64,000 bases of DNA from a virus (lineage: Duplodnaviria > Heunggongvirae > Uroviricota > Caudoviricetes). Below, piece after piece: positions 462 through 60,592 of the stretch; the first letter of the stretch is position 1; every line of letters begins with the position of its first letter. The translations under genes were made by a program, and so were the position numbers. Below the pieces are notes generated by a model that saw only the letters and a program-made list of their open reading frames with translations, searched no databases and had not been told where the DNA came from. The DNA is taken from positions 1,134 to 65,133 of IMG/VR virus record IMGVR_UViG_3300032220_001761. One strand, given 5' to 3'.

Positions 462-488
462 CTCTAATTATTTGTTTAATATTTCTAT

Positions 489-833: not shown

Positions 834-946
834 AATAGTAGAAAAATCTAAATATTTACGATTTTTTGCCTAAATATTTTTTTTGTTAACATCTTATTGT
901 TAATTTAGCAGTGTAATTAAAAAGATACAAACAAATACTTAAAGAC

Positions 947-1159
947 ATGGGTTCCAAGATTACTCCTACTGAGAAAGGTAAAATCAACGTAAGAGACGAG
1001 AAAGAATTTAAGCTTTGGATAAAGTTTATCGCATCCGTTTACAAAAGCGGCGGTGATATTAACAAGCCAGCTGATATTCTATGGAAAAGTTTCGAAGGGG
1101 AAATTAAAATGGCGGAGACAAGATGTAGGATTAAAAACCAATCCGCAATCTTTTCTTAA
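947..1159 (+). CDS. hypothetical small protein
   Basis: 70-aa ORF, lysine/glutamate-rich, in an intergenic slot. Confidence 0.35.
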   Translation: MGSKITPTEKGKINVRDEKEFKLWIKFIASVYKSGGDINKPADILWKSFEGEIKMAETRCRIKNQSAIFS

Positions 1160-1164
1160 GGCAA

Positions 1165-4120: not shown

Positions 4121-4375
4121 TTGAATATTGTGTCTTGTGGTAGAGGATTCGTATTCTTTTTAGTCTTCTTTTCTTGTTTTATTTCTACTTGGATAAATTC
4201 ACAGAACTTTCTAACCATATTAGTTTTATTGTATGTCATATCTAGAAGCAAAAAGATAATTCAAATTTTAACCATCCAATAATCAATTCATAGTCTCCGT
4301 TTAATACCCTTGAATATGTCACCTTTATATAGGGAATTAAATAGAATTGATAACAAACTTCGTTTATTTGTACTT

Positions 4376-4589: not shown

Positions 4590-5828
4590 TTAATTACTTA
4601 GCGGTGCTTTAATTGTTTCGTGTGATTGATAGTCACTTAGAATAAAATCATTAATAGAACTAGAAAATATCCCATCTCTAACATGAACTGTAGGTAAAGG
4701 GAAAGGCTCTCTTGTTTTCTTAGGTATTTTATACGAATCATAATACTCGCTTAATCCTCCTCCAAAAGGAACCATTTCAGAAACTGCTGTGCTATAAAAA
4801 TCTCCCATAGCAGTCTTTAACATATCATGTCTTTCTTCGTGAGTGTAGTTTCTGCCAATCTGCTCCTTTGCTTGTTCAATATGATTTGAATAAAGATGAA
4901 CATCACCCAAGTTACCAATCAATTCATCAGGAATCATATTAACCTCGTCTGCAATCATCATCAATAACAATCCGTAAGATGCAATGTTAAATGGTAAACC
5001 TAAGAATGTATCTACTGAACGTTGATTCCACATTAGAGAGATTGCTCGTTTAGGAACACCATAAGGTCTAAAAAACTCATCCATAGAAAATTCAACATCG
5101 AATTCTCTCATAGGTAAACCAATTTTAGGTCTATTTTTCTTCATCCAATCCAATCTTTCTTCATTACTCAACTCTCTTGTATAAACTTGAAATCCATAAT
5201 GACAAGGTGGAAGTACCATTTGGTCTAATTCTCCAACATTCCAAGCATTAACCATTAATCGTCTTGAGTCTGGATTTGTTTTAAGGTCGTTGATTAGATT
5301 TTGAATTTGGTCTATTGGTTTATAAACAATCTTTGGCCATTGTAATCTATCATCATTTGGCCATTCCACTAAATCACCAGATTTACACTTTTCTGGTGTA
5401 TTCCAACTTCTCCATTGCTTACCATAAATTGGACCTAATTCACCCCACTTCTTGGCAAACTCATCATCTATTTTGATCTTCTCAATGAATTCTTCTTGTG
5501 ACAATAACTTATCTTTTTCAGTTTCACCAATTACATCTAATGCTTTTTTTTCATAATTCTTATAAGCATCACCATCCCAAATATGACAATTATTATCAAC
5601 AAGGTATTTGATATTAGTATCGCCACGTAAGAACCAAATCAATTCAGTTACAACTGTCTTAAATGGCATCTTTTTGGTTGTAAGGAGTGGGAATCCTTCT
5701 GACATCTTATGACGGATTTGTCTTCCGAATACTGATAGTGTACCAGTCCCTGTTCTGTCTTTCTTTTCTACACCATTATCAAGGATATCTTGAAGGAGTG
5801 CTATGTATGTTTTATCTAGGTTGTTCAT
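4590..5828 (-). CDS. thyA: thymidylate synthase (ThyA) family enzyme with three large insertions (412 aa). Could be a dUMP methylase or a dUMP hydroxymethylase
   Basis: ThyA motifs present: ELGPIYGKQWRSW (dUMP-binding loop), MVLPPCHYGFQ (catalytic Cys), NQRSVDTFLGLPFNIASYGLL with Asn retained in PFNIAS (uracil specificity), and C-terminal HETIKAP. About 100 extra residues inserted relative to 264-320 aa ThyA. Confidence 0.75.
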   Translation of the reverse strand: MNNLDKTYIALLQDILDNGVEKKDRTGTGTLSVFGRQIRHKMSEGFPLLTTKKMPFKTVVTELIWFLRGDTNIKYLVDNNCHIWDGDAYKNYEKKALDVIGETEKDKLLSQEEFIEKIKIDDEFAKKWGELGPIYGKQWRSWNTPEKCKSGDLVEWPNDDRLQWPKIVYKPIDQIQNLINDLKTNPDSRRLMVNAWNVGELDQMVLPPCHYGFQVYTRELSNEERLDWMKKNRPKIGLPMREFDVEFSMDEFFRPYGVPKRAISLMWNQRSVDTFLGLPFNIASYGLLLMMIADEVNMIPDELIGNLGDVHLYSNHIEQAKEQIGRNYTHEERHDMLKTAMGDFYSTAVSEMVPFGGGLSEYYDSYKIPKKTREPFPLPTVHVRDGIFSSSINDFILSDYQSHETIKAPLSN

Positions 5829-6030
5829 TATCCTTATTATCGTATTTCATTTCAATATAGTAAAGTTGCCCACTCGGAGGTGGCATTGGAGAAACCTCTA
5901 CGTCTTTGGCATCTACTTGTTTAAATTCTACCTTGGTCCATTTAAAACCCCAAGCCTTTGCTAGTTTATCTAAAAAACTTTGCGGATACCTGTGTTTAAA
6001 TCCTCCTAATAATCTGCTCATTTCTATCAA
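5812..6030 (-). CDS. hypothetical protein
   Basis: 72-aa ORF overlapping the thyA-like start by 17 bp. Confidence 0.4.
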   Translation of the reverse strand: MIEMSRLLGGFKHRYPQSFLDKLAKAWGFKWTKVEFKQVDAKDVEVSPMPPPSGQLYYIEMKYDNKDNEQPR

Positions 6031-6281
6031 TTTTTTTTATAAAATCTCTCGTAGTTTTCATCGAATATTTTGTCTATCTGTTCTTTGTACTTAGGATCTT
6101 CTGAAACAATTTCCATTAGATCCCTATACATTTGATAGCCAAATCTAAGATCTCTTAGATATCCTTTGCAGTAATCGCCTTTTTCGGATTGCTTGCAAAC
6201 TAAAGCAGAACAGCATCCTTCTTCTCCACAAGCATCACACTCTTTACAGTATGGTAAATAGGTATTTTCGTTATACTCCAT
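6027..6281 (-). CDS. small cysteine-rich (probable zinc-binding) protein
   Basis: CKECDACGEEGCCSALVCKQSEKGDYCKGY cluster. Confidence 0.4.
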   Translation of the reverse strand: MEYNENTYLPYCKECDACGEEGCCSALVCKQSEKGDYCKGYLRDLRFGYQMYRDLMEIVSEDPKYKEQIDKIFDENYERFYKKN

Positions 6282-6537
6282 CCTCCTCAGGCTGCGGGTT
6301 AAAATTCTCGAAATGTGGATTCTCTAATTGCTTAAATCCCCCTTCGCTATCATCGTACATGTAGGCGAGTGTTACTATGCAATTTCTTAAACCTTCCATT
6401 TCATTTTCAATAGAATCTACACCTATTACAATTGTAGGATCTGAGTCTTTATCCCTGGTATTCTTATTCAATTTTCTAGTTAATGAATTATAGCTAGATA
6501 ATAGGTGGTTTCTTAAACCATCCATGCTTACTGTCAT
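6271..6537 (-). CDS. hypothetical protein
   Basis: 88-aa ORF in operon-like tandem. Confidence 0.4.
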   Translation of the reverse strand: MTVSMDGLRNHLLSSYNSLTRKLNKNTRDKDSDPTIVIGVDSIENEMEGLRNCIVTLAYMYDDSEGGFKQLENPHFENFNPQPEEDGV

Positions 6538-6725
6538 GATTTCTCCGTATTGTAGTGTTCTAATTGATCCTCATTAAAAATATGTAGTAATCCATATTCG
6601 TCCATTTCGCCAACTACGCGAATATTTCCTCCTACCGTTTTGAATACACTTACTATTGTACAAGGAAATTTATATCCCTTAGACTTGTAAGCTTTATCTC
6701 CTACTTTGAATTTTGTATTTTCCAT
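6534..6725 (-). CDS. hypothetical small protein
   Basis: 63-aa ORF with 4-bp overlap. Confidence 0.35.
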   Translation of the reverse strand: MENTKFKVGDKAYKSKGYKFPCTIVSVFKTVGGNIRVVGEMDEYGLLHIFNEDQLEHYNTEKS

Positions 6726-6726
6726 T

Positions 6727-7197
6727 TTAGTATGTTTTTCCTTCTGTGTTGATGCCTATAAATTCGTCAAGTTTTTTCAAATCAGGTTTCATTGAACCTG
6801 GATATTTTGAGTAATTGATTGTTTCTCCTTTGCTGTCAGTAATAATAAGTTCTCCATGAACAAAGTTCTGAATTTCCATCACAGATAAAACACCAACATG
6901 TTTTTTGTATTGATCTATAATTTCGTATCCGTGATCTCTAAGAACAGCAGTTAGGATAGGGCCTTCACTATTCAGAAGTTCCATTGATTTTGATTTTTCC
7001 ATATTATAAAAATTATCATCTATTTCTTCATAGAAATATTCGTTGTTTGGATCTTCCTCTTCTCCACAAAAGCTAATGCAATGATGTATAAGTTTAATAT
7101 TTTCCTCAGAACAGAAAAGAATAGAAATAACTCTTGTTTCTGTTGTGTCCCCAGTATCTGGATCTATGTGTTTGTACTTTAGCTTATATAGTGGCAT
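6727..7197 (-). CDS. hypothetical protein
   Basis: 156-aa ORF. Confidence 0.45.
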   Translation of the reverse strand: MPLYKLKYKHIDPDTGDTTETRVISILFCSEENIKLIHHCISFCGEEEDPNNEYFYEEIDDNFYNMEKSKSMELLNSEGPILTAVLRDHGYEIIDQYKKHVGVLSVMEIQNFVHGELIITDSKGETINYSKYPGSMKPDLKKLDEFIGINTEGKTY

Positions 7198-7216
7198 ATA
7201 GTAAATGTAAGTTTTC

Positions 7217-7537
7217 TTATGATTTTATTCTGAAATAATTATTAACACACAGATACTCATAAAGTCCTTTTAAATCCTCACAAATAGGATTTTTATTTTC
7301 GTCCCAAGCATTCATATCTTTTCTTGGCTCACCCGAAATAGCATCTTTTTCCCACAGGAACCACTCTAACCAGTCAAGTCCTTCTGGTGTTAATATTTCT
7401 TCCCATAACATTCTAAAAAGGGTATGATACTGGTCAGTAAAATCTAGAATGTCAACCCCAACAGAGTATGCTTTTTTTACTTTTTTATCCTGTTCCGAAA
7501 GAAGGTTAATGTATTTTTCAAGCTTTTCGTACTCCAT
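7217..7537 (-). CDS. hypothetical protein
   Basis: 106-aa ORF. First gene of the minus block, diverging from the 7609 gene. Confidence 0.45.
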   Translation of the reverse strand: MEYEKLEKYINLLSEQDKKVKKAYSVGVDILDFTDQYHTLFRMLWEEILTPEGLDWLEWFLWEKDAISGEPRKDMNAWDENKNPICEDLKGLYEYLCVNNYFRIKS

Positions 7538-7568
7538 AATTACTTATTTTTAGGTGCAAAAACAAAGA

Positions 7569-7582
7569 AAGTTCCGGAACTT
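7569..7582. promoter_or_regulatory. 14-bp perfect palindrome AAGTTCCGGAACTT in a 71-bp divergent intergenic region (candidate operator)
   Basis: Read directly. It equals its own reverse complement. Lies between divergently transcribed genes 7217..7537(-) and 7609..8232(+). Confidence 0.4.
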
Positions 7583-7608
7583 AAGCTATTAGCAATCATA
7601 AAATAAGC

Positions 7609-8232
7609 ATGATATATTTTACATCAGATACACATTACAGCCACAAGAATCTTGTTAAAGGAACTTCAAGATGGGAGGATACTTCACGATGTAGGGATTT
7701 TAAATCTCTAAAGGAGCATGACGATTTAATAGTTAATTCTATAAATTCTTTAGTAGGACAGGAAGATACCCTTTATCATCTAGGTGATTGGAGTTTTGGT
7801 GGGATCGAAAACATAGAAATTTTCAGAAGAAGAATCAACTGCTTTGATGTCCATTTGATTTTAGGAAACCACGATCAGCATATTGAAGCTAATCCTGAAA
7901 ACTTTATACATCTTTTTAGCAGTATTTCACACTATAAAGAAATAAGTGTTGGTGGAAATAAAATAGTATTAAGTCATTGGCCAATGAAGGTGTGGCATAA
8001 ATCACATCGAGGTTCTTGGCAATTACATGGTCACTGTCACGATCATCTTAGACCTGATGAATGGTGGACTAAATCAAAACCGCAGGAAAGAAGAAGAACA
8101 ATGGACGTGGGGATGGACACCAACGATTATAAACCTTGGTCTTTTGAAGTTCTCGAGAAAATGATGTTGAAATTAACTAAGCATCCTGACGGACTAGACA
8201 ACCATAAGCCTTTTAGATCTGAGGAAGACTAA
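7609..8232 (+). CDS. calcineurin-like metallophosphoesterase
   Basis: Metallophosphoesterase motifs DTHYSH (DxH), LGDWSFGG (GDxx), ILGNHD (GNH[DE]), HGHCH. Confidence 0.65.
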   Translation: MIYFTSDTHYSHKNLVKGTSRWEDTSRCRDFKSLKEHDDLIVNSINSLVGQEDTLYHLGDWSFGGIENIEIFRRRINCFDVHLILGNHDQHIEANPENFIHLFSSISHYKEISVGGNKIVLSHWPMKVWHKSHRGSWQLHGHCHDHLRPDEWWTKSKPQERRRTMDVGMDTNDYKPWSFEVLEKMMLKLTKHPDGLDNHKPFRSEED

Positions 8233-9277
8233 TACTCTGCAATAATCCATCAGGAACTTTATTTTCTATTTCCGACCAAACAGATGGTGCTGTGGCAGTA
8301 GAATCATTAGTCATGGTTAAAGCTTTTCCAGCCCACTCGCTTTTTACAGCAAGATTTAAAGCCTGTATATGTGATGTAGCTTCTAAACTTTCTTTAGATA
8401 AAGATTCAAGTATTATCTTAGAGGCTTCTCCTATTAGATTTAAGCAACAGTCTTTATGATTTTTATCCACCGTTAAGTCGTGGAATTCAAATATACTGGA
8501 TTTATAATTTTTACTAGTTTGCCCGTTTATCTTTATTAAAAGAGCATTTCCTATTTCTGTTAATGCCTTCTGCTTCAGATCCGAGATTTCAGATTCGTTT
8601 TTAGCTTCTGTGTGACAAATAAGATCTGAATGAATTTCTAACATGGTGTTTATAGCTTGAACCTCTTTAGCACCGTGTATTCCTTCAATCGATAATTTTA
8701 CATGATCGTCATTAAAGATCTTATCAGGATCGATGTTTGGAAGATCAATCCCTATGAATTCTGACATATAATCAAGAACCACACTCATAGCTTGATCCGG
8801 AGTTTTAGTTGTGGTATTTAGCCATATATGGTTGGCAACATGAGTAAATGGAGTTATTGCTCTGTATTTGAAAAAGAATTCCGCATCTATTTTTAACTCA
8901 CCGTTATAAGCGAGTCCAGTTACAGTATCAATTCCACCTTTTATTATTATATCACCTTCTGAAAAATCAGAAGGAGTTTGGAATACACCAAAAGAATCAG
9001 TAGTAGAGTTTTTAATAGATCCGTCAGAATATAAAAAAATGACCTGTGCTCCTGAAAGAGTAGCATCTGAAGCTACCCCAGAAAACCCGCCATTTCCAAA
9101 AACACCTACAAAATAATCGCCAGTATCGCTATCTCCTTCTTCATAAGAGAATGGTATTTTTTTCTTGAGAGCTTCATAAATCTGTTGCTCTCTTTCCTTC
9201 TCTTTTTCCCAGATTTTGTACTTAATTCTAAGCTGTTCTTCTGTAAGCCCTGGATATTTTTCTCTAAAACTTTTCAT
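8213..9277 (-). CDS. hypothetical protein
   Basis: 354-aa ORF. Converges on and overlaps 7609..8232 by 20 bp. No family recognised. Confidence 0.5.
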   Translation of the reverse strand: MKSFREKYPGLTEEQLRIKYKIWEKEKEREQQIYEALKKKIPFSYEEGDSDTGDYFVGVFGNGGFSGVASDATLSGAQVIFLYSDGSIKNSTTDSFGVFQTPSDFSEGDIIIKGGIDTVTGLAYNGELKIDAEFFFKYRAITPFTHVANHIWLNTTTKTPDQAMSVVLDYMSEFIGIDLPNIDPDKIFNDDHVKLSIEGIHGAKEVQAINTMLEIHSDLICHTEAKNESEISDLKQKALTEIGNALLIKINGQTSKNYKSSIFEFHDLTVDKNHKDCCLNLIGEASKIILESLSKESLEATSHIQALNLAVKSEWAGKALTMTNDSTATAPSVWSEIENKVPDGLLQSISLPQI

Positions 9278-9302: not shown

Positions 9303-10298
9303 TTATCTAGGACCAAGGAAGCCTAAATTACCGCCTCTTTTTATTTTAGGAGCCTTTTTCATATCTGTAAGATTTCCTAGAGCTTCTGAAAAATCTTTTC
9401 CCATTACAATAACAGATATGATTAATTCTTTAAGATGAGATAATGACATACCCTCGGTTGATTCTATCCAAACAGGCATATCTACATTACTAAGATCCTC
9501 TTCAGATAGCTTATTTTTTATGTATGCTTCTCTAATTTCTTTAGAAGGCATTTCAACTTGATATCTTCTATCAAATCTTGAAGGTCTGTTAGTTATTCTT
9601 TCTTGTAGTTTTTCCGGATAGTTAGTGGTTGCTATATAAACAACATTTTCGATTTGCTTAACTCCATCAAGGATATTTAAAAGCTTGGTTGTCGAATAAC
9701 GGTCTTCACCAGCAAGAGCATCAATATCCTCAAGAATAACAATTAAAGGTCTTTCTGGCTCGATCTTACGAATGGTTGGAATAAATTCAACGAAAGATTT
9801 AAAATCGTCTTCCTCCTTAATGTTTATTACAATTCCGTTCTCTCTATCGATTAATTTCTTTATACAAAGCTGTATTATCCCTGATTTTCCACACCCAGGT
9901 TCTCCCCATAAAAGTATACCTCTTTTGTGTACGAAGTTGTATTTTCTGTAAACATCTTTTTTGTCCCAAAATAGCTGTATATCGCTAAGGATACTTTGTA
10001 TCTCTGGTGATGGCAATTCGTAAAGTTCATCTACCTTCAATTTTTGTTTAACCATGACATGGGTCTGAAGGTTAGAATTCCATATGATCTCATAGAGACC
10101 AGATGGAACTTTCGGTATCGAAACGTAAGAAGGGGCAAATGTCTCATTTTGAAGTATAGACCATTCAGTTGGAGATTGGATATCTATGTTATCTAATCCT
10201 TCCTGGTCCATTATATAGTCGTCTATAATGTGGTTATTTCTCATATTTTTAATTAAGCGGTTTATACCTGACTGCCTCATCCCTCTCTTATTTTTCAT
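9303..10298 (-). CDS. AAA+ ATPase (classic AAA clade)
   Basis: Walker A GEPGCGKSG, Walker B IVILEDIDA, second region of homology NRPSRFDRR with arginine fingers. Confidence 0.8.
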   Translation of the reverse strand: MKNKRGMRQSGINRLIKNMRNNHIIDDYIMDQEGLDNIDIQSPTEWSILQNETFAPSYVSIPKVPSGLYEIIWNSNLQTHVMVKQKLKVDELYELPSPEIQSILSDIQLFWDKKDVYRKYNFVHKRGILLWGEPGCGKSGIIQLCIKKLIDRENGIVINIKEEDDFKSFVEFIPTIRKIEPERPLIVILEDIDALAGEDRYSTTKLLNILDGVKQIENVVYIATTNYPEKLQERITNRPSRFDRRYQVEMPSKEIREAYIKNKLSEEDLSNVDMPVWIESTEGMSLSHLKELIISVIVMGKDFSEALGNLTDMKKAPKIKRGGNLGFLGPR

Positions 10299-12365: not shown

Positions 12366-12421
12366 TCCGTAACTAAATCCATTTCTACTTGTAGAATATT
12401 GAAATCTTAAGACCAAACTAG

Positions 12422-13994: not shown

Positions 13995-14626
13995 TCCCAC
14001 CATCCTCTTATCCCTGATCCATCAAATTGTCTTAACCAATTATCATATGATTCGTTATGATCAGTTCCCTCAGGTGATTGTTGAAATTTGCTATAATCTT
14101 GGCCTTCTAGTGTAGTCCATAATTCTTTAAACATACTTTCCTCGATCTCTCTGGCTCTATCAAATATTCTTCTGTTGTTATCCTTCTCCTCCTCAGTTTC
14201 ATTATCCACAAGTGATACGGTTCCATTTCCTTCACCAGAATCTTCAAATTCCCAATCTCTATGAATAATGCTTATTCCTAGATCTTTTTCAGCAAGGTCT
14301 ATAAAATCCTCTTTTCTAAAATGACCAAGTATCTCAACTACTCTTCGCATTTTTTGAATTTTCTTTTCTGATGTTTCTCTTACCTCATTACCTCTTTCAT
14401 CCACATTTTTTGCAATGTCAGAAATAGAGGTTTCAATAAAGTTAAAAACCGTATGGTGACCAGACCACCATCGGTGATTGTAGAGGGCTTTTCTGAAAAT
14501 CCATATATTTCTGAAAAATCTTGGGAGATCATATCTTAAAAAATCCCAGGTCTTCCAGTACCATCTTTCTCGGGCAATCATTTTTTCGAAGCTTTCGAAA
14601 AATGTGTCTTTAAATTTTACTTCCAT
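13991..14626 (-). CDS. hypothetical protein
   Basis: 211-aa ORF, Trp/Arg-rich N-terminus, acidic C-terminal half. Confidence 0.45.
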   Translation of the reverse strand: MEVKFKDTFFESFEKMIARERWYWKTWDFLRYDLPRFFRNIWIFRKALYNHRWWSGHHTVFNFIETSISDIAKNVDERGNEVRETSEKKIQKMRRVVEILGHFRKEDFIDLAEKDLGISIIHRDWEFEDSGEGNGTVSLVDNETEEEKDNNRRIFDRAREIEESMFKELWTTLEGQDYSKFQQSPEGTDHNESYDNWLRQFDGSGIRGWWD

Positions 14627-14696
14627 ATCAATCTTATTTATTCACCACACAAAGGTTTCTTTTTTAAATCAGGATAAATACAAGAATAAAACATAC

Positions 14697-15551
14697 ATGA
14701 TGAAACACATCAAGACAAGAAATCAATTTTTAAACGAACAGCTATTTGGTAACGCCTACGGGCAATTATTAGATCTTTTAGGAATAGGAGATCCTAAAGA
14801 TATAAAAGAACCTAAGGCATCAGTGGTTAACGGGGAAGTTAAGTTTAACCAGTCTGGAGATAAAGCAAAAAATATACAGATACTAATTGATACCATGAAA
14901 AAACACGGCATCACTAATCCTTACACACAAATTGCAATTTTAGGAGTTATAGGTAAGGAAAGTAACTACATTCCAAAGATTGAAAAAGGATACGGAAATA
15001 CATCAAATCAAAGAATCAGAAAAATATTTGGATCAAGAGTTAGCGATTTAAGTGATGCACAATTAGACCAAATTAAAAAAGACGACGCTAAGTTTTTTGA
15101 TCTTGTTTATGGTCCAGGTGACAAGACTGGAAAATCTCAAAAATATGGAAATTCTTCTGTTGGTGACGGATGGAAATACAGAGGTAGAGGATTCAATCAA
15201 TTAACCTTTAAAGGATCTTACGAAAAGATGCAAAAGCTCTTGGATGCTAAAACTAAATTGAATAAATCTGCTAACATTGTAACTAATCCAGATCTTTTAG
15301 ACGATCCAGAGGTTGCTGCAGAAATTGCAACGCTATATTTTATATCAAGAGCAGCAAGTCCTCAAATGGCTCAAAAGTTCGGTGTATCCGATATAAATGG
15401 ATTTAAAGACCAATTTACTGCAACTAAAGCTATGACTAACGCAAACGCAGGATGGGGCAACGATGTAACGAACGATGAAGGATTTACAAGAGCTCAACAA
15501 TACGCTGCTAACTTTAACGTGGATCAGTCAGGAACTGCATCCATGGCTTGA
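14697..15551 (+). CDS. glycoside hydrolase family 19 (chitinase/lysozyme-like) protein. Paralog of the 51758 endolysin
   Basis: GH19 core motifs ILGVIGKESNY..., KYRGRGFNQLTFKGSY. Start moved to Met at 14697 because the ORF-track start at 14604 overlaps the upstream minus gene. Confidence 0.65.
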   Translation: MMKHIKTRNQFLNEQLFGNAYGQLLDLLGIGDPKDIKEPKASVVNGEVKFNQSGDKAKNIQILIDTMKKHGITNPYTQIAILGVIGKESNYIPKIEKGYGNTSNQRIRKIFGSRVSDLSDAQLDQIKKDDAKFFDLVYGPGDKTGKSQKYGNSSVGDGWKYRGRGFNQLTFKGSYEKMQKLLDAKTKLNKSANIVTNPDLLDDPEVAAEIATLYFISRAASPQMAQKFGVSDINGFKDQFTATKAMTNANAGWGNDVTNDEGFTRAQQYAANFNVDQSGTASMA

Positions 15552-15677
15552 TATATAATAAGTTAACTTTTTGACTCGTGTTCCATTGATCGAAATGGAA
15601 TCCTATAGGGGAAGGCTGCTATTGAAAGCTTAAAGTCTTTCTTATTTTTTATCCCCACAAATAAAATAATTTTTTAA

Positions 15678-17945
15678 ATGAAAAACTTTTTGGTTTTATT
15701 GTTGTGCTTTATAGCACACGTGGGATTTTCGCAAAATCTATTTAAGGACGTAAACAAGCAGGTAATGCTTGTTCCAACACCAGGACAAGAAACGTCTCTG
15801 GTAAATTTTGTATCTGAAAGTAATTCTGAGATTGTATTACACTTTAAGGAACTAAATTGGTATTTGATAAAAATACCAGACGAAGTTTCCCAGGACGAAT
15901 ATCTTTCATATTGTAAGGGTAAAAATTTCATAAAAGCATTTTATAAGGATGAGGTTATGGAATACAACAGGGATTATATTCCAAACGATCCTAATTTTAA
16001 TCTATCCTGGCACTTAAAACAAGCATCAGATGCAGATATAGATGCAGACGAGGCTTGGGATTTAGTATCTAATAATGGTGGCTACACAACAGTTGCAGTT
16101 TTTGATGGTGGATTCGAGCCATTGCACGAGGATCTAGTAGGTAACTACAATAACATTTTTAATGCTGTTACAAATCTTCCTTATAATGGAGCTTTTGCAA
16201 ATTCATTTGATAGACATGGGGTTGCTTGTTCTGGAGTTATAGCTGCTGTTACCAATAATGGAATTGGTGTATCAAGCGTGGGAAATAATCTGGTTCAGGT
16301 TATGCCAATCAATATAATGTCGGGTGTTTATAGTGGAGGATCTTTTAATACATCTTCTTCGATTCAAATTAATGCTATAAATGCTGCAATGGCTAATCCA
16401 ACTTGTGTTGCTATATCTATGTCATACAGCGGATCTTCTTTTAGCCAAGCACTAAATGATGCCTTTTTGACCGCTAGTACAACAGCTAGAGGTGGAAAAG
16501 GAATACTATGTTTTGCAAGTTCTGGTAATGGATATTCAGGAACTGCAACAAATTATCCAGCTTGGTACCCTTCAGTATGGGGTGTTGGAGCTACAGGTCA
16601 ATCAGATACAAAAGCATCTTTCTCCAATTTTGGTCAAATATGTGACATATCAGCTCCAGGATCTTCAATAGTAACAACTGATAGAATAGGTTCAGAAGGA
16701 TATAGCTCCACTTCGAATTATGCAACAGTATCAGGAACTTCTTTTAGTTGTCCAATGACAGCTGCAGCATCAGCATTGGTTGCTTATAGAAATAGTACAT
16801 TAACTGCCGATCAGATTATGTCTATACTATCCCAGACTTGCGATAAAGTTGGAGGATATTCATACACAAATAATCCAAATTTTCCATATTCGACTAGATC
16901 TAATGAATTAGGATACGGAAGAATTAATCTGAAGAATGCAATATTAATGACCCCAGACAACGGAGGGGGAACACCTCCTCCTGTTACAAATCATGATATT
17001 GTTCTAATAAACCCATCAGTTTCTCCACAGACTGGATTATATGGATCTACAATTTCTATATCATGTACACAATTAACAATGAATCCTTCATTGGGAAGTG
17101 TAAATAGTATTATACAATATAGATATTCTTCCAATACAACATGGGGTGATGCTGACGACATTATAATAGGAACTGACACAACGGTTCTTGGTGGAGGTGT
17201 TATATCTGGGACTGAAAATATTTCCTTTATAGTTCCAAGCCAGTCCGGAACTAAATACATTCTAATTAAGTCTAATTTTGATGGATCTATAATAGAATCT
17301 AATTATAGCAATAATCTAGGTGTGGCTAATTTTATACCTATAGATCCTAATATAGCTCTTGCTGATTTGTCGGTGGAATATTTACTTCCTACAACTTCTG
17401 AAATTGTTTTAACTCCTAATCAGATCTCTGTCAATTTTAGATGGAGATTTACAAACACAGGGACAGTTCCTATTACATCCTTCTCATATGAGAAAAAATG
17501 GGTAAATTGCACAGGAAGTTTTATTTTTAGCTGTTACTCAAATTCGTCATGGAGCGGAAATCTTTTACCTGGTCAATCAGTAGTTCTTCCAGGACAGAAT
17601 TCTTGGATTTCATCAAATACTTGCCCACAGCTATCTAATCCTTCCTCGACAGTTTGTTTTGTTCCTTTAGGTGGATCTAACACATACAGGACAACGATTG
17701 TTTCAGTGAATGGATCAACTGGAGATTATAATTCTTTAAATAACATAAGGGATATTAACTTTTCAAGACCTCTTCCTGCAGAAGGATCTGTTGATCTCTA
17801 CAGTGTAGATCCAACATACGTTGAAATATACACAGTTACAGGCAGTCTTTTAGATAAAGCAAGATGGGATGAATTACCTAGCGGGATCTATCTAGTAAAA
17901 GAGATTTATCCAGATGAAACTAGAGTGATAAAAAGAGCAAAATAA
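15678..17945 (+). CDS. secreted subtilisin-like serine protease (S8) with C-terminal beta domains and a type IX secretion (Por) C-terminal sorting domain
   Basis: Signal peptide MKNFLVLLLCFIAHVGFSQ. Catalytic triad contexts VAVFDGG (Asp), HGVACSGVIAA (His), GTSFSCPMTAAAS (Ser). CARDB-like segment. C-terminus ELPSGIYLVKEIYPDETRVIKRAK resembles the T9SS CTD. Confidence 0.8.
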   Translation: MKNFLVLLLCFIAHVGFSQNLFKDVNKQVMLVPTPGQETSLVNFVSESNSEIVLHFKELNWYLIKIPDEVSQDEYLSYCKGKNFIKAFYKDEVMEYNRDYIPNDPNFNLSWHLKQASDADIDADEAWDLVSNNGGYTTVAVFDGGFEPLHEDLVGNYNNIFNAVTNLPYNGAFANSFDRHGVACSGVIAAVTNNGIGVSSVGNNLVQVMPINIMSGVYSGGSFNTSSSIQINAINAAMANPTCVAISMSYSGSSFSQALNDAFLTASTTARGGKGILCFASSGNGYSGTATNYPAWYPSVWGVGATGQSDTKASFSNFGQICDISAPGSSIVTTDRIGSEGYSSTSNYATVSGTSFSCPMTAAASALVAYRNSTLTADQIMSILSQTCDKVGGYSYTNNPNFPYSTRSNELGYGRINLKNAILMTPDNGGGTPPPVTNHDIVLINPSVSPQTGLYGSTISISCTQLTMNPSLGSVNSIIQYRYSSNTTWGDADDIIIGTDTTVLGGGVISGTENISFIVPSQSGTKYILIKSNFDGSIIESNYSNNLGVANFIPIDPNIALADLSVEYLLPTTSEIVLTPNQISVNFRWRFTNTGTVPITSFSYEKKWVNCTGSFIFSCYSNSSWSGNLLPGQSVVLPGQNSWISSNTCPQLSNPSSTVCFVPLGGSNTYRTTIVSVNGSTGDYNSLNNIRDINFSRPLPAEGSVDLYSVDPTYVEIYTVTGSLLDKARWDELPSGIYLVKEIYPDETRVIKRAK

Positions 17946-18353
17946 ATGATATCTAAGAATTTCATTATTCTATTGTTCGTCTTTATTTCAAGCGTATCTT
18001 ATTCTCAATCTACTAAGGATTCTTATATAAGAGAGCTTGAAATAAAGATAGAACAGCAGCAGCTATCGATAGATTCACTGGATTTTTATTTACAGTCCTC
18101 AAAAATAGTTATGCTTAAGCAAAACGAAAAGAGGAAGATCTGGATGAAAATAGCAGGATCTGAAATGTTAGTAGGAGCTGGTATAGGTATAGGTGTTTTA
18201 ACAGGATTATGGGTTCCAGTTTTCATGGGTGTTGCATTGGTTGAACTTTTTATAATCACTGAAGGAAATTATAGACTAAATCTAAAATCTATAAAAAAGA
18301 ATAAACCAATTTACAGGAGGGATAAGCCAGACGGTAAATTAGGTCACAAATAA
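17946..18353 (+). CDS. small exported/membrane protein
   Basis: Signal peptide (ILLFVFISSVSYSQ) and a C-terminal TM helix. Start codon abuts the protease stop. Confidence 0.45.
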   Translation: MISKNFIILLFVFISSVSYSQSTKDSYIRELEIKIEQQQLSIDSLDFYLQSSKIVMLKQNEKRKIWMKIAGSEMLVGAGIGIGVLTGLWVPVFMGVALVELFIITEGNYRLNLKSIKKNKPIYRRDKPDGKLGHK

Positions 18354-18355
18354 AA

Positions 18356-18733
18356 ATGAAAATGAAAAAAATATGTTTTTTAATAATCCTTTCTTTAGTT
18401 GTCCTTTCCTCATTTAAACCAAGAGAAGATAAAGACGGAATAATTTACTGGATAGACAGAGAGGAAAAAGATGTTTTTATAAGCGTATTTGGTGCAAGAT
18501 ATAATATCGAGTACGAGATAGCAGACTCTCTGGTCGAAAGATTTGAAAAGGATACGATCACTAGACAGATAGAAATAAACTCCAAAATAGGAGTTATAAC
18601 AGGATGCTATGATTACTATGACAATGTCAACCATATCTTAGTTACTTTCTGTGTAGACAAATATGAGCTATCTAATGGTGATGTATACTATCCAAGGAAG
18701 ACTACAGATTATTGCTCTTGTATAGGATTTTAA
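18356..18733 (+). CDS. small secreted protein
   Basis: Signal peptide MKMKKICFLIILSLVVLSSF. Four Cys. Confidence 0.45.
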   Translation: MKMKKICFLIILSLVVLSSFKPREDKDGIIYWIDREEKDVFISVFGARYNIEYEIADSLVERFEKDTITRQIEINSKIGVITGCYDYYDNVNHILVTFCVDKYELSNGDVYYPRKTTDYCSCIGF

Positions 18734-18737
18734 TAAA

Positions 18738-19328
18738 TCACTTAATAATATAATCCTTATACGAACTAGTTTTAGGCTTTTCGTTGGCGAAGTAGTATAC
18801 CTCTGTTACTTCCCCGTATTTTATTTCTTTAGTAAATCCACTAGGTACAGTTGCTCCAGTAGGTAGTTTTATAGATTTCTCATCAAATTTAAGGATGATA
18901 TGAACGCTAACTTTCGTTTTTAAAGCAATCTCCCTTTCGTGTATTTCCAATAATCTCCATGCCCCTCTATTTAGGTATTGATCTTGTAGGGCACAATTTA
19001 GATAAGAGAATGTTTTTTGTATTGTAGCTCTGTCGCAAGAAAAATCCGCAGCAGGAGCCATATGTCCTTTATCGTAAATATTATTTTCGTAATCCTCCTT
19101 AGATGAGGTATGAATGCTATCGTTTGTGTAAAAATCTAATCCTGCTCTAGAAGCTTTACCTCCTGGACACTGAACGTTGTACCAAACCTCTAATGGCTGC
19201 TCAAGATCTTCCGAATAGATCACTGTATAAATCCCTGCATCTACTTTTCTTGGTTGTCTATCATCAGTTGTAAGGGATAATAAAAAGAATGATAGTATTA
19301 ATAATGATAGAATTAATAGTTTTTTCAA
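18738..19328 (-). CDS. secreted DNA/RNA non-specific endonuclease (Serratia-nuclease/EndoG family)
   Basis: Signal peptide. Active-site motif DKGHMAPAADF (DRGH-type) followed by NCALQDQYLNRGAWRLLE (N..PQ..LN.G.W..LE). Confidence 0.7.
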   Translation of the reverse strand: MKKLLILSLLILSFFLLSLTTDDRQPRKVDAGIYTVIYSEDLEQPLEVWYNVQCPGGKASRAGLDFYTNDSIHTSSKEDYENNIYDKGHMAPAADFSCDRATIQKTFSYLNCALQDQYLNRGAWRLLEIHEREIALKTKVSVHIILKFDEKSIKLPTGATVPSGFTKEIKYGEVTEVYYFANEKPKTSSYKDYIIK

Positions 19329-25724: not shown

Positions 25725-26244
25725 ACAACAAATCCTTGGAGAAGTATTTACACCTGTTTTTATGACAGAGGATGAATTCGAAAAAGGATACAAAGAATCT
25801 ATATTTTGGACAGATAAGGATTTCATGTCAGAGTATAGAAAGCACATAGCTGCAATGTCTCATGTATCTGAATGTGCGAAGATATACATTCTTAAAAATT
25901 GGGCGAAGGTCAAGGATTGGAGCGAATTAGATGTGGTTATAGTACATGGTCCTTCTGGAAAAATGACGGAATACTATAATTATGTTCCTAGAGAAATTAA
26001 CAACGACCATAAAATAAAGGAAGGGGCTTATTCAAATCTGTTAAAAGAAATTGATGAGAAAAACAAGCTAAAGCATAATCCCATAAGGGAATTTAACGAG
26101 GTTATCCTTGACCCCACAGACGGTGATTTTTCAGTTACAGTAAATGGCAACGAAGAGCACTGGTGGATACAAGACGAAGCTGTTATAATAATAGCAGATT
26201 ATATTGAAGAACAATTAAAAAAACAAGATAATGAGGAAGCTTAA
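25663..26244 (+). CDS. hypothetical protein (start probably the Met at 25702)
   Basis: 193-aa ORF with lysine-rich N-terminus. Confidence 0.45.
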   Translation: MSISKKQKKKLKSMKKKEEYKQQILGEVFTPVFMTEDEFEKGYKESIFWTDKDFMSEYRKHIAAMSHVSECAKIYILKNWAKVKDWSELDVVIVHGPSGKMTEYYNYVPREINNDHKIKEGAYSNLLKEIDEKNKLKHNPIREFNEVILDPTDGDFSVTVNGNEEHWWIQDEAVIIIADYIEEQLKKQDNEEA

Positions 26245-27127
26245 CTTAGCAAATCCAGAAAAAAGTGGGATAGAATTTCAAATTTCTAAATTCCCAGATG
26301 GTCAGCAATCAGTGACTATAAATTCTCCGTTCTTAGCATCAACAGAACCTATAACAATAATCTCTAGAATGAACTCGTTCCGAGATCTTGAGCTTATCAT
26401 CTGTGCTAATGTCGCATTAAAAGAAATAGGAACTAAAGAAATCCATCTCTTTGTACCTTATTTTTTAGGAGCAAGATCAGATCGTAAATTCGTAGACGGA
26501 GGATCTAACTACCTAAAAGATGTCATCTGTCCTATCATCAACATGCAGAATTTCGAAACGGTTACGGTTTTAGATCCTCACTCTGATGTTTTAGAAGCTT
26601 GTCTTAAAAATTTCAGAAAAGAAACCAATATTGAATTTGTAAGAAAAGCTCTTACAAAGATCGATAATACAAATGATGCTAGAGAAAAAATGGTTATCAT
26701 TTCACCTGATGCAGGAGCAATGAAAAAGATCTATCAGGTTGCAGAAGCATTCTCGTTAGACAAAATTGTTATCGCTGCTAAACACAGGGATTTGAAATCT
26801 GGAAAGATTACTCACACGGAAGTACCAGATCTCAATAAATATTCACCAGATTCAAACTTTGTCATTATAGATGACATCTGCGATGGAGGTAGAACATTTA
26901 CTGAAATATCTAAAGTAATCAAATCTCATGTCTGGCCGAGGGACGAATATTTCAGAGGTAAGATCTATTTGATTATTACCCATGGTATTTTCTCTGCTGG
27001 TCTTTTAGATTTGAGTAGAAACTTCGACAATGTATTTACAACAAACAGTGTAAGGGATCTTGAGGTCGAGGATTTTTCAGATTACACTGTATCAAAAGAT
27101 TTTGTAATCCAATTTGAAGTTGTCTAA
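26231..27127 (+). CDS. ribose-phosphate pyrophosphokinase (PRPP synthetase) family protein. Candidate ADP-ribose pyrophosphokinase (Adps) of an NAD+ reconstitution pathway
   Basis: Prs-like blocks: FPDGQ (FsDGE), LELIICANVALKEIGTKEIHLFVPYFLGARSDRK (PYfgYaRQDRK), ISPDAGAMKK, and PRPP-binding loop VIIDDICDGGRT. Confidence 0.7.
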   Translation: MRKLNLANPEKSGIEFQISKFPDGQQSVTINSPFLASTEPITIISRMNSFRDLELIICANVALKEIGTKEIHLFVPYFLGARSDRKFVDGGSNYLKDVICPIINMQNFETVTVLDPHSDVLEACLKNFRKETNIEFVRKALTKIDNTNDAREKMVIISPDAGAMKKIYQVAEAFSLDKIVIAAKHRDLKSGKITHTEVPDLNKYSPDSNFVIIDDICDGGRTFTEISKVIKSHVWPRDEYFRGKIYLIITHGIFSAGLLDLSRNFDNVFTTNSVRDLEVEDFSDYTVSKDFVIQFEVV

Positions 27128-29430: not shown

Positions 29431-30993
29431 ATGTTCAAACCAAACAGTTTATTCTACAGCGACGGCTATAAGATTGGCCACAAAAAAATGCTTGCTAAAG
29501 GAACTTCTCGTCTTTATGGTACATGGATTCCTAGAAGCATTAAGCATGCTCCTAAAGGTGTTAAGAAAATCCTTTCATTCGGACAACAACTTGCAATGAA
29601 ATGGCTTCATGATGAATTTTCAGAAAACTTTTTTAAACTATCCAAAGAAGATGCAATGCAATTCGGAAATGATATGTCATTGTATCTTGGTATGGATTAT
29701 GATGCTTCGCACTTTGAAGCTCTTCATGATCTAGGATATCTTCCAATTCGTGTAAAATCTTTACCAGAGGGGATCGAGACTTTACCAAATATCCCTCATA
29801 TGACATTCATTAACACTCTTGATGGATTTGCTTGGCTTACTCTTTATCTTGAAACTATCATTTCTTCACTTTCTTGGAAGCCTTCAACTTCGGCAACCAT
29901 TGCATTACAATACAAAAGAAACGTGGTTGAATGGGTAATGAAAACGGATCCAGCAAATTCTTTCCTCATTCCTTTTCTTTGCCATGATTTTTCTGCTAGG
30001 GGATTAAGTCCTTGGGATATGTTATCAAGCGGTCTAGGACACGCTACATCATTTCTAGGATCTGATACAATCATTTGTATCCCAGGAGCACGTTACTTCT
30101 ATAACGAGCCTAATGACCAAGTTGCAATCTACTCTGTAAATGCTTCTGAACACTCCGTATCGACAACTAAGATTTTTACAGTTGGTGAACAACAAATGAT
30201 AGCGGATTGGTTGGTAGATTTTCCTAAAGGTATCTTATCAATTGTATCTGATACTTTTGACCTTTGGAAGTTAATCACCGAGTACTTACCAGCAAATAAA
30301 GAAGCTATCATGGCTCGTGACGGTAAGTTAGTTATTCGTCCCGATTCTGGTGATCCTGTTGATATTATTTGTGGAATCAATACAAGGAATGATCCTGATA
30401 ATCGTTACGTTAAATTAGCTGGTACTCCTGAATACAAAGGAGTAATTGAATTACTTTGGGACATCTTCGGTGGCACAACCAATGAACAGGGTTACAAAGT
30501 ACTAGATCCTCATATCGGAGCAATCTATGGGGATTCAATTAATTTGGATCGTCAAATTCAAATCTATGAAAGATTGGAAGCTAAAGGTTTTGCTGCAACT
30601 AACATTGTTTTAGGAGTAGGATCTTTTACGTACCAAATGAACACTAGAGATACTTTTGGTTTTGCAGCTAAAGGAGCTTGGTTCGAGGTTAAAGAAGAGA
30701 TTGGTCAAACAGTTGATACATTACAGCCAATTTACAAATACACTGGATTTGATATTTTTAAGGATCCTGTAACAGATGATGGTACTAAAAAATCTCTAAA
30801 AGGTATGGTTGCTGTATTTGAAAATGACGGAGACCATTATGTTAAGATTCAATGTACACAGGAAGAAGAGGAAACAGGATTACTACAAGTTATCTATGAA
30901 AATGGTAATTTTTATAACCAATCTTCATTAACTGAGATTAGAGCAAAAATCAATGAGCTTTGTAACGAAAAAGTTCTTGAAACAGAAATTTAA
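29431..30993 (+). CDS. nicotinamide phosphoribosyltransferase (NAMPT/NadV) family protein. Candidate nicotinamide-ADPR transferase (Namat)
   Basis: N-terminal SDGYKIGHKKM...GTSRLYGTWIPRS (TDSYK..H...YP.T...ys.R) and overall 520-aa NAMPT-like length. Confidence 0.8.
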   Translation: MFKPNSLFYSDGYKIGHKKMLAKGTSRLYGTWIPRSIKHAPKGVKKILSFGQQLAMKWLHDEFSENFFKLSKEDAMQFGNDMSLYLGMDYDASHFEALHDLGYLPIRVKSLPEGIETLPNIPHMTFINTLDGFAWLTLYLETIISSLSWKPSTSATIALQYKRNVVEWVMKTDPANSFLIPFLCHDFSARGLSPWDMLSSGLGHATSFLGSDTIICIPGARYFYNEPNDQVAIYSVNASEHSVSTTKIFTVGEQQMIADWLVDFPKGILSIVSDTFDLWKLITEYLPANKEAIMARDGKLVIRPDSGDPVDIICGINTRNDPDNRYVKLAGTPEYKGVIELLWDIFGGTTNEQGYKVLDPHIGAIYGDSINLDRQIQIYERLEAKGFAATNIVLGVGSFTYQMNTRDTFGFAAKGAWFEVKEEIGQTVDTLQPIYKYTGFDIFKDPVTDDGTKKSLKGMVAVFENDGDHYVKIQCTQEEEETGLLQVIYENGNFYNQSSLTEIRAKINELCNEKVLETEI

Positions 30994-31075: not shown

Positions 31076-32935
31076 ATGTTAGAAACAGTAATTCAGTATT
31101 GGTGGACAATTATTCCACTGTTAGCAATTGTATTCTACAAGTTTACATTGCGTGTATTTTTCGGGATGGTAATTATCCCGGAAGATAAAATCGGTTTGGT
31201 AACCAAAAAATTCGTTCTCTTCGGAGCAAACAAACAATTACCAGACGGAAAAATTATTGCTCTCAACGGAGAAGCAGGTTATCAAGCAAATGCTTTAGCT
31301 CCTGGTTTATACTGGGGTTACTGGGTTTGGCAGTTCTCTGTAGATCAAGCGGATCTTACAGTCATTCCTAAAGGGAAAATTGGTTTGTTGTCAGCAAAGG
31401 ACGGAACGCAACTTCCTACTGGTGCTATCCTTGCACGTCACGTAGAATGTGACAACTTCCAGGATACAGTTGCTTTCCTAAACAACAAGGGACAAAGAGG
31501 TAAACAGGTCGGTTATCTAAACAACGGGGTTTACCGTATTAATACATTCCTATTTGATATAGCAATTGCGGATATCACTTATATAGAAGACGGAATGGTT
31601 GGTGTTGTAACTACATTGGATGGAACACCATTAGATCAAGGAAACATTGCTGGTAAAGTTATTCCAGGACACAACAATTTCCAGGATTTTGATAAATTCT
31701 TAAGCAGTGGCGGACAACGTGGTCTACAAGAACAAGTAATTCAAGCTGGTAACTATTCTCTTAATCCTTGGGCAGTTGAGGTTGAAAAAGTTCCAATGAC
31801 AGAAATCGCTATTGGACACGTAGGTGTGGTAATTTCATATGTTGGGGACAAAGGCGAAGATTTAACTGGATCTGGCTTCAAGCATGGTAATATTGTTAGA
31901 GAAGGACAAAAAGGTGTATGTATTACTCCTTTCGATCCTGGTAAATATGCGGTTAACCCTTACACACATAAAATTGAAAGAGTCCCAACAACAAACCTTG
32001 TATTGAACTGGGCAAACGCAAGAACAGAATCGCATAACTTAGATAAGAGTTTAAGTACGATCACTGTTCGTTCAAAAGACGGCTTCCCGTTTAATCTTGA
32101 TGTATCCCAAATTATTCACATTCCTTCTACGGAAGCTCCGAAGGTGATTGCACGATTTGGATCTATGCAAAACTTGGTATCTCAAGTATTAGAGCCAACT
32201 ATCGGTAACTACTTCCGTAACTCTGCTCAAGGCTCAGATGTTATTGCTTTCTTAGCTACCCGACAAGATCGTCAAAATGCAGCTAAAGAAGCTATCAGTA
32301 AGGTTTTAGAGGAATACAACGTTCATGCGGTTGATACACTTATAGGTGATATAGTTCCACCTGATTCTCTAATGAAGACCTTAACCGACCGTAAGATTGC
32401 ACAGGAAGAAGAGGTAACTTTCGAAACACAGCGTAAAGCACAAGACCAACGTAAGACACTAGAGTCTGCTAAGGCTCTTGCTGATATGCAAGGTAAAATG
32501 GTAGCTGCACAACAATCAGTTGAAATCTCACAACGTGAAGCAGAAGCAGCAGTTAAGAAATCAGAAGGGGAAGCGAAAGCATTAGAACTTAAAGCTGGTG
32601 CTCAGGCAAAAGCTAAAAAGCTAATGGCTGAAGCTGATGCTGCTCAGATTAAATTAACAGGTGAAGCTGAAGCATCAAAAATTGCAGCAATTGGTAAATC
32701 TACAGCGGAAGCTTACGAGAAACAGGTTAAAGCAATGGGTGCAGATAACTTCGGTAAATTAAAAGTTACTGAGATGATAGGTACAAACGGAATCAAGATC
32801 ATTCCTGAGATTCTAATCTCTGGCAACGGAGATTCATCTCCGATTAATGGACTTTTAGGGATGGAACTTCTTAAGCAAATTCAAGAAAAGAAAGAAAAAT
32901 CTGGAAACATTAATGAGGGTAAGGTGATAGAATAA
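31076..32935 (+). CDS. flotillin/SPFH-family membrane protein (YqiK-like)
   Basis: N-terminal TM helix. Internally duplicated NFQD...GQRG.Q repeats. Ala/Glu/Lys-rich C-terminal coiled-coil region (AKALELKAGAQAKAKKLMAEADAAQIKLTGEAEASKIAAIGKSTAEAYEKQ) typical of bacterial flotillins. Confidence 0.65.
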   Translation: MLETVIQYWWTIIPLLAIVFYKFTLRVFFGMVIIPEDKIGLVTKKFVLFGANKQLPDGKIIALNGEAGYQANALAPGLYWGYWVWQFSVDQADLTVIPKGKIGLLSAKDGTQLPTGAILARHVECDNFQDTVAFLNNKGQRGKQVGYLNNGVYRINTFLFDIAIADITYIEDGMVGVVTTLDGTPLDQGNIAGKVIPGHNNFQDFDKFLSSGGQRGLQEQVIQAGNYSLNPWAVEVEKVPMTEIAIGHVGVVISYVGDKGEDLTGSGFKHGNIVREGQKGVCITPFDPGKYAVNPYTHKIERVPTTNLVLNWANARTESHNLDKSLSTITVRSKDGFPFNLDVSQIIHIPSTEAPKVIARFGSMQNLVSQVLEPTIGNYFRNSAQGSDVIAFLATRQDRQNAAKEAISKVLEEYNVHAVDTLIGDIVPPDSLMKTLTDRKIAQEEEVTFETQRKAQDQRKTLESAKALADMQGKMVAAQQSVEISQREAEAAVKKSEGEAKALELKAGAQAKAKKLMAEADAAQIKLTGEAEASKIAAIGKSTAEAYEKQVKAMGADNFGKLKVTEMIGTNGIKIIPEILISGNGDSSPINGLLGMELLKQIQEKKEKSGNINEGKVIE

Positions 32936-60547: not shown

Positions 60548-60592
60548 TCTTTCCTTTATCATTGTTAGAGCAAAAGAAAGAAATAATTTCAA

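Follow-up and report, generated by a model that had tools for sequence, protein, structure and literature searches.

A conserved phage-restricted subtilase family with a shortened secretion signal–like tail and recurrent linkage to an exported nuclease

A 64,000-nt stretch of DNA from a virus of the class Caudoviricetes (positions 1,134 to 65,133 of IMG/VR record IMGVR_UViG_3300032220_001761; hereafter, the window) encodes a 755-residue subtilisin-like (S8) protease and, close by, a DNA/RNA non-specific endonuclease. Here, we report that the protease represents a conserved, phage-restricted subtilase family with a shortened tail resembling the C-terminal domain (CTD) in type A cargo of a type IX secretion system (T9SS) and that this family is recurrently linked to an exported nuclease. 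The four open reading frames (ORFs) of the locus, which include two small ones designated sm135 and sm125, occupy exactly positions 15678 to 19328, where a preliminary description of the window had put them. The conserved linkage of the two enzymes, the phage-only distribution of the protease family, and the cassette-like insertion of the protease block are new compared to that description.

Genes whose products bear type A sorting domains of the T9SS and presumably rely on the host machinery have been described in “Cryophage” (Bellas et al. 2020, PMC7468147); besides these, no further report of phage-encoded type A cargo was found in the literature searched. The Cryophage cargoes comprise an endoglucanase, a GH39 enzyme, and a PA14 protein encoded in hypervariable islands, unlike the conserved phage-restricted subtilase family, linked to a nuclease, that is considered here. 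Our results would extend this single published case to a conserved family with hundreds of members and suggest that such phages routinely send enzymes to the host envelope.

The protease family and its C-terminal tail

The S8 assignment made earlier holds: PF00082 matches the protease with an E value of 7.8e-31 (107.9 bits; cutoff, 21.8). No variation occurs among 46 homologues in the D143/H180/S355 triad, which is arranged in the subtilase order, or in the oxyanion residue N284. The absence of a proper triad on alignment had been named beforehand as a possible refutation; the catalytic domain aligns to thermitase (E = 7.5e-25) with the triad residues included. A search with the protease returned 488 matches at E ≤ 0.001, the best 120 of which are nearly all full length and 47 to 79% identical. 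No member of the family was found in GenBank phage records, where only distant S8 genes of Bacillus phages were detected, and two scans of GTDB species representatives revealed no cellular relative, although these scans were pattern-based and such absence is not proof. Within the limits of the GenBank and GTDB scans, the protease lineage seems to be confined to phages and not to have been captured recently from a host.

Signal peptides of the protease family were judged by heuristics, namely, a hydrophobic leader and a Q-rule site. The protease leader ends in VGFS followed by Q19 and is helical in the AlphaFold2 (AF2) model. Q19 is invariant in the 46 homologues, and [SAG]Q is present at the cleavage position in 117 of 120. 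This cleavage pattern is the Bacteroidetes-specific “Q-rule” (PMC5837995), which was previously recognized in proteins of Porphyromonas phages (PMC10367356). On this heuristic basis, the protease carries the N-terminal Sec signal peptide of a T9SS cargo, and the signal peptide of the preliminary description is borne out.

The segment that follows, residues 28 to 97, adopts a β-α-β-β-α-β-β arrangement in the AF2 model [predicted local distance difference test (pLDDT) of ~85 to 91] and is connected to the catalytic domain through a disordered linker (residues 99 to 121). The best Foldseek matches of the protease model are pro-forms of subtilases (fervidolysin, 1r6v; pro-Tk-subtilisin; and ProN-Tk-SP), with ~450 aligned columns. 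Pfam Inhibitor_I9 matched neither residues 1 to 129 nor the whole protein, so the propeptide-like N-terminal region proposed earlier has support at the level of fold only. The same can be said of the proposed CARDB-like β domain: a CARDB-type β-sandwich fold is found in the model, but the CARDB profile (PF07705) matched neither the whole protein nor, even at E ≤ 10, residues 428 to 755. The two β-sandwich domains contain invariant Cys, Trp, and Gly columns in the homologue alignment. The conserved cysteines would fit an oxidizing compartment and are in this respect consistent with export.

The overall layout (a propeptide-like region, a catalytic domain, and two β-sandwich parts) resembles that of fervidolysin, the best full-length fold match, in which the domains follow the same order. 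Unlike the phage protease, fervidolysin has no T9SS tail; the identity in the alignment is 16%, and its source bacterium is presumably not a member of Bacteroidota. Both by sequence and by fold, one of the best matches (27% identity in the Foldseek alignment) is mirolase, one of the KLIKK subtilases exported as T9SS cargo by Tannerella forsythia (PDB 8ehe, a structure with potempin C). It is an S8 subtilase from a Bacteroidota setting that also starts with a signal peptide; its pro-region and its T9SS signal at the C terminus would correspond to the propeptide-like region and CTD-like tail of the phage protease. The phage protease differs from mirolase in having two extra β-sandwich domains and a much shorter CTD-like tail and in being phage encoded.

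Several observations suggest that the resemblance of this tail to type A CTDs is real. TIGR04183 matches 25 of 49 divergent family tails (best E = 7.7e-6, an estimated ~26 bits), and no other model recurs in more than two to three of them. The best PDB match of the tail profile is 8glk_D (E = 2.8e-4), the CTD of Flavobacterium johnsoniae NucA; the 8GLK structure captures this type A CTD trapped in the SprA/PorV translocon (PMC10994853). The profile aligns to residues 22 to 74 of the 75-residue NucA (Fjoh_4723) CTD, including its LPSGxY motif and C-terminal Lys, while the first ~20 residues of the NucA domain have no counterpart in the phage tail. Both the G-x-Y motif and the near-C-terminal lysine are present, with G736 and K752 aligning to the NucA CTD; K752 is the counterpart of a lysine that in type A CTDs is near-invariant and functionally important (PMC10994853). 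These two residues are invariant across more than 46 sequences in a region that is just 20 to 40% identical, which argues for selection on the tail. A separate observation concerns the second-best PDB match of the profile, residues 819 to 854 of 9whd_A (E = 0.38): this segment is the extreme C terminus of a GH167 glycoside hydrolase and also resembles a T9SS CTD.

Other results weigh against a canonical CTD. Scans of the whole protease with TIGR04183 and PF18962 gave no match, and the isolated tail scored below the curated cutoffs with both models (14.5 to 14.8 bits and E = 0.02 to 0.025 against a cutoff of 23 for TIGR04183; 12.5 bits against 27 for PF18962). Among 10 tails from different subfamilies, eight matched TIGR04183, also below the cutoff (13.1 to 20.8 bits), and two did not match at all, one of them of the type found in L002, a related contig considered below. 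In the AF2 model, the tail consists of three strands (residues 714 to 719, 737 to 743, and 748 to 754) and a short helix, with residues 702 to 709 disordered. This is not the fold of a canonical type A CTD, which is a seven-stranded sandwich (PMC10994853) of ~70 to 100 residues, and the tail may be so short that recognition by the T9SS fails. The literature offered no usable figure for how short a type A CTD can be.

The sub-threshold scores in the window protein and the 10 subfamily tails, the truncated modeled fold, and the L002-type tails without any TIGR04183 match would be expected if the tail were no working T9SS signal but a relic or a generic small β unit, in which case the protease would stay in the periplasm or be freed only at lysis. 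We consider this decidedly unlikely since TIGR04183 is the sole recurrent model, the reciprocal best PDB match is a genuine CTD, and the invariance of G736 and K752 implies selection. The Por/T9SS sorting domain of the preliminary description thus survives in a weaker form: the recurrent TIGR04183 matches, the similarity to NucA, and the invariant K752 speak for it, but the curated cutoffs were not reached, and the check with TIGR04183 gave a match with the isolated tail only. We therefore treat the tail as a shortened, CTD-like candidate signal and have not assigned the protein to TIGR04183. Should so short a tail work, it would narrow what SprA/PorV must recognize and provide a compact secretion tag. 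A family-specific CTD hidden Markov model (HMM) revealed no other CTD-bearing ORF in the window.

The nuclease and its linkage to the protease

The second enzyme had been described as a secreted Serratia-family DNA/RNA endonuclease. PF01223 covers its residues 33 to 171 with a score well above the cutoff (E = 7.6e-19; 68.7 bits against 23). Its DKGH motif aligns to DRGH of EndoG (3ism), as does the metal-binding Asn, and the active site of Serratia nuclease aligns likewise. The phage nucleases thus share catalytic family and motif with the EndoG/Serratia-type enzymes, EndoG being the closer relative and Serratia nuclease a weak match (E = 6e-3). A search for the family returned 3176 matches with uniform lengths of ~192 to 197 residues, which makes these proteins minimal compared to EndoG- or Serratia-type nucleases. 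Each of the 120 listed homologues contains D[KR]GH; all homologues have an N-terminal leader or anchor, and about half have a Q-rule site (A/S/G-Q).

No CTD was found in the window nuclease or its examined homologues. Since the nuclease has a leader but no CTD, its predicted location is the periplasm and not the medium; hence, the family assignment made earlier stands, while “secreted” is better replaced by “exported to the periplasm.” The arrangement is the reverse of that in F. johnsoniae, where the nuclease carries the CTD; in the phage module, the CTD-like tail belongs to the protease. A homologue that is 53% identical and annotated as “endonuclease G” is encoded by a cultured Flavobacterium phage, vB_FspM_immuto. 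Its leader ends in LSFSQ, and its gene adjoins ribonucleotide reductase genes, with one endonuclease gene between; it belongs to the same family as the window nuclease but has no adjacent protease. Directly beside the nuclease gene of vB_FspM_immuto_3-5A, on the side away from the ribonucleotide reductase genes, there is a gene for a C-type lectin protein whose leader also conforms to the Q-rule (ending in SSYGQ; L026, 2739 to 3737, minus strand).

Of 25 related viral loci, 20 have a nuclease homologue (50 to 57% identical) that is encoded on the strand of the protease and immediately upstream of it, with 22 to 34 nt between the two genes. These loci span at least three sequence subgroups. The promoter-like motif ATATTTATA is found ~27 nt before the nuclease start in 19 of the 20 loci and never between the nuclease and protease genes. 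In L002, one of the contigs with a linked pair, ATATTTATA occurs eight times compared to 1.25 expected, always on the coding strand (e.g., 4326 to 4334, 9372 to 9380, and 12383 to 12391), and precedes the prohead protease, a head-module gene, three giant tail fiber–like genes, and the nuclease-protease pair. The shared motif and its absence between the two genes suggest that in the relatives the pair is a two-gene operon co-expressed with virion genes. The giant genes downstream of the L002 pair encode neither signal peptides nor CTDs. We therefore rejected a larger “secretome island” in L002 and regard the pair as an inserted module there.

The strength of this association is limited in several ways. 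Many of the 25 loci are closely related, so that the independent observations are fewer than 20 of 25 would suggest. ATATTTATA is absent from the window, where the nuclease and protease are convergent and do not form an operon. The nuclease is found without the protease in L028, L030, and phage immuto and alone in huge phages other than L001; conversely, L001, a 642-kb phage, has the protease and sm135 but no nuclease within 10 kb. The pairing is, accordingly, common but not obligate.

In the window, convergence of the nuclease on the protease-sm135-sm125 block was confirmed, with a 4-nt gap between the nuclease and sm125, and the same gene order was found on an independent metagenomic contig (L027). 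All four proteins of the locus have hydrophobic, signal-like N termini; only ~10 to 11 such ORFs exist in the whole window, and the four are contiguous (permutation test for a run of at least four, p ~ 0.009). Comparison with L030 and L031, phage contigs of 161 to 260 kb, shows how this arrangement may be read: at 5106 to 8665, they have a backbone, sigma-o108-endolysin-nuclease-o115-o190, that is common to the window but without o211, the protease, sm135, and sm125, a clean indel. The window nuclease is the last gene of the backbone operon o190-o115-nuclease. The nuclease is, therefore, a backbone gene, and the protease block is an indel cassette directly beside it.

The same comparison bears on the possibility that the endolysin-like gene (phrog_181) immediately upstream of the protease forms a lysis cassette with it, sm135 and sm125 acting as holin-, spanin-, or outer membrane–disrupting factors. 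Spanins are not recognized in these phages, and the signal sequence, coiled coil–like stretch, and hydrophobic segment of sm135 would suit such a role. Yet, an endolysin homologue is found near the protease in none of the 25 related loci, L030 and L031 keep the endolysin-nuclease backbone without the protease, sm135, and sm125, which are thus not core lysis genes, and the endolysin and protease genes of the window have a hairpin and 126 bp between them. A lysis cassette is very improbable, and we rejected it on the grounds of synteny.

The small ORFs differ in their conservation. sm135 has 44 homologues (57 to 94% identity), some on contigs of 611 to 631 kb, and a mean column identity of 80% in a 12-sequence alignment; it lies directly 3′ of the protease in L001 and in the close clade. 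Its product has a Q-rule signal peptide, a coiled coil–like stretch, a hydrophobic segment of ~35 residues, and a basic tail. For sm125, only four representatives were found among 1.84 billion (33 to 49% identity), with the N-terminal hydrophobic segment kept. Profiles of sm135 and sm125 gave no meaningful match in Pfam, PDB, or PADLOC. Potempins are small exported inhibitors whose genes stand beside KLIKK protease genes. The position of sm135 and sm125 after the phage protease resembles this adjacency, and the two proteins might, by analogy with the T. forsythia potempins, be cognate inhibitors; there is no sequence match to potempins, the comparison with PDB potempin chains, which used sequence profiles only, giving nothing at E ≤ 10.

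Possible roles of the module

We tentatively propose, with slightly less than even confidence, that the protease and nuclease belong to a phage module of envelope-directed hydrolases that act jointly outside the cytoplasm, probably late. Export of both enzymes by Sec is likely. The host Sec system and signal peptidase I would remove the 18-residue leader of the protease, exposing Gln19, while the propeptide-like domain would hold the subtilase folded but inactive. The short tail would act as, or derive from, a T9SS type A signal and direct the protease through the SprA/PorV translocon to the surface or medium; passage through the T9SS is plausible. The nuclease, exported by Sec and lacking an outer-membrane signal, would collect in the periplasm, away from replicating phage DNA. 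The putative targets are DNA of the host that lysis sets free, together with proteins at the surface or anchored by the T9SS, possible receptors included, and their removal would keep progeny virions from being trapped or wasted. Under this scheme, the protease and nuclease genes would be selected to stay together. We infer late action from the location of the relatives’ operon behind a virion-gene motif. Whether the pairing serves progeny release or phage-phage competition is amenable to test. An alternative raised earlier, that the enzymes are virion-associated depolymerases, is disfavored by the conserved cleavable signal peptides.

A more elaborate version of the proposed module, possible but unlikely as a whole, would be a phage-restricted “exit kit” comprising hijacking of the T9SS by a natural minimal type A signal of ~50 residues, stripping of T9SS-anchored receptors or adhesins by the surface subtilase, clearance of DNA at lysis or degradation of DNA from competing phages by the periplasmic nuclease, and sm135 and sm125 as membrane or periplasmic cognate inhibitors that guard the infected cell until release. 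If true, it would be the first conserved module of Bacteroidota phages to destroy receptors and clear DNA and would define the shortest natural T9SS signal.

The predicted periplasmic location of the nuclease and its intact active site would also serve superinfection exclusion, with the nuclease destroying the DNA of later phages and the surface protease removing receptors. Secondary adsorption of T4 is thought to put DNA in the periplasm (PMC6832632), and Flavobacterium phage resistance reportedly maps to gliding/T9SS genes, making T9SS-dependent receptors plausible (10.1101/2020.10.02.323337, PMC9804748). The locus in the window, moreover, lies among non-structural genes. However, the operon of the relatives shares the virion-gene motif, which speaks for expression late in infection, unlike that of the known exclusion genes of T4, which are early, and no Imm- or Sp-like partner was identified. 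On this evidence, exclusion seems to us an unlikely role.

The window is also rich in metabolic genes, including those for thymidylate synthase, NAPRTase, and an ABC transporter adenosine triphosphatase (ATPase), and the immuto nuclease gene is near ribonucleotide reductase genes. Taken with the common export of degradative enzymes through the T9SS (PMC7468147), this would be consistent with nutrient scavenging, i.e., digestion of external protein and nucleic acid by the exported enzymes to feed phage replication with amino acids and nucleotides. Such a role appears improbable. A lytic cycle leaves little time for digestion outside the cell and uptake to be worthwhile, the pair of the relatives is in a structural module behind the virion-gene motif, and the nuclease, having no signal for crossing the outer membrane, cannot reach extracellular DNA.

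Lastly, PADLOC weakly matched both the protease, with IetS (E = 8e-4, 15.7 bits), and sm125, with a 2TM effector model (E = 2e-4), as might be seen if the locus were an anti-phage defense system, related to IetAS or otherwise based on a protease or nuclease. These matches are explained by generic S8 similarity, no IetA-like ATPase partner is found among the neighbors, and both enzymes are exported, unlike cytoplasmic defense effectors. We give the defense reading almost no credence and rejected it because of the weak matches and the missing ATPase partner.

Phage source, locus features, and neighboring genes

The window encodes a phage-type sigma factor, a nucleotidyltransferase, an endolysin-like protein, an RNA ligase, a clamp loader–like ATPase, and a head protein–like ORF, as well as many auxiliary genes. 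Its DNA similarity is limited to uncultured phages larger than 630 kb and Flavobacterium myophages. Protease homologues were found on contigs of up to 642 kb, and in one lineage, the pair is located beside T4-type terminase, portal, prohead protease, and Gp23 genes. The source thus seems to be a large Bacteroidota phage, T4-like or “huge,” whose hosts are probably Flavobacterium-like. The Bacteroidota host clue of the preliminary description is supported by the Q-rule sites of the protease family, by the NucA CTD as the best PDB match of the tail, and by the nuclease homologue in a Flavobacterium phage. A Q-rule leader combined with a T9SS-like tail may serve as a host marker that, from sequence alone, points to Bacteroidota for many uncultured large phages.

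The coordinates of the locus and of the protease domains are listed in Table 1. The protease/sm135 junction reads TAAATG, the sm135 start codon abutting the protease stop codon, and the sm135/sm125 junction reads TAAaaATG, with the sm125 start 2 nt past the sm135 stop. The TTG start codon of the nuclease overlaps the stop codon of the upstream ORF (ATTGA). The hairpin 3′ of the endolysin is TTCCATT-gatcga-AATGGAA at 15581 to 15600. Gene callers choose an internal Met start for the endolysin ORF, which yields a 284-residue protein. Scans of the window for sigma-70 promoters and intrinsic terminators performed no better than on shuffled sequence, and a k-mer search of its upstream regions revealed no clear promoter motif.

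Table 1. Features of the protease-nuclease locus and of the protease, in window coordinates.
Feature	Position	Strand	Basis or remarks
Endolysin-like gene (phrog_181)	14604-15551	+	Just upstream of protease
Protease (S8 subtilase), 755 aa	15678-17945	+	ORF list, confirmed
Signal peptide, aa 1-18	15678-15731	+	Predicted signal peptidase I cut before Q19; MKNFLVLLLCFIAHVGFS/Q
Propeptide-like α/β domain, aa 28-97	15759-15968	+	AF2 model and Foldseek
Peptidase S8 catalytic domain, aa 136-414	16083-16919	+	PF00082; D143, H180, N284, S355
β-sandwich domain 1, aa 441-555	16998-17342	+	Pro-rich linker before it
β-sandwich domain 2, aa 564-696	17367-17765	+	AF2; invariant C649, C660
Shortened T9SS type A CTD-like tail, aa 702-755 and stop	17781-17945	+	Sub-threshold TIGR04183; G736, K752 invariant
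sm135, small membrane protein	17946-18353	+	ORF list, confirmed
sm125, small signal-peptide protein	18356-18733	+	ORF list, confirmed
DNA/RNA non-specific endonuclease, 196 aa	18738-19328	-	ORF list, confirmed

Some other genes of the window and of related contigs deserve mention. A 591-residue protein (47511 to 49286, minus strand) that has a membrane anchor at the N terminus and an OmpA peptidoglycan-binding domain at the C terminus is another envelope-directed protein, and two small ORFs on the same strand (60263 to 60592 and 52628 to 52870) have lipoprotein-like leaders, ending in LSLTGC and LVLSSC, respectively, and may encode phage lipoproteins. A 709-residue protein (54818 to 56947, minus strand) combines GAF and histidine-kinase ATPase domains with two PAS domains and an N-terminal membrane segment; such a sensor kinase is unusual in a phage. 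A plus-strand cluster consists of genes for a phosphoribosyltransferase (26231 to 27127), a NAPRTase-family protein of NAD salvage (29431 to 30993), and a 619-residue SPFH/Band 7 protein (31076 to 32935). In L001, a 193-residue CHU_C ORF (115 to 696, minus strand) lies beside a PKD-domain ORF (697 to 1263, minus strand), ~9 kb from the protease. CHU_C is the type B T9SS sorting domain, and these ORFs are possible further phage T9SS cargo. A gene for ribosomal protein S21 is located between the portal and prohead protease genes in L002 (3570 to 3761, minus strand) and L003 (3650 to 3835, minus strand).

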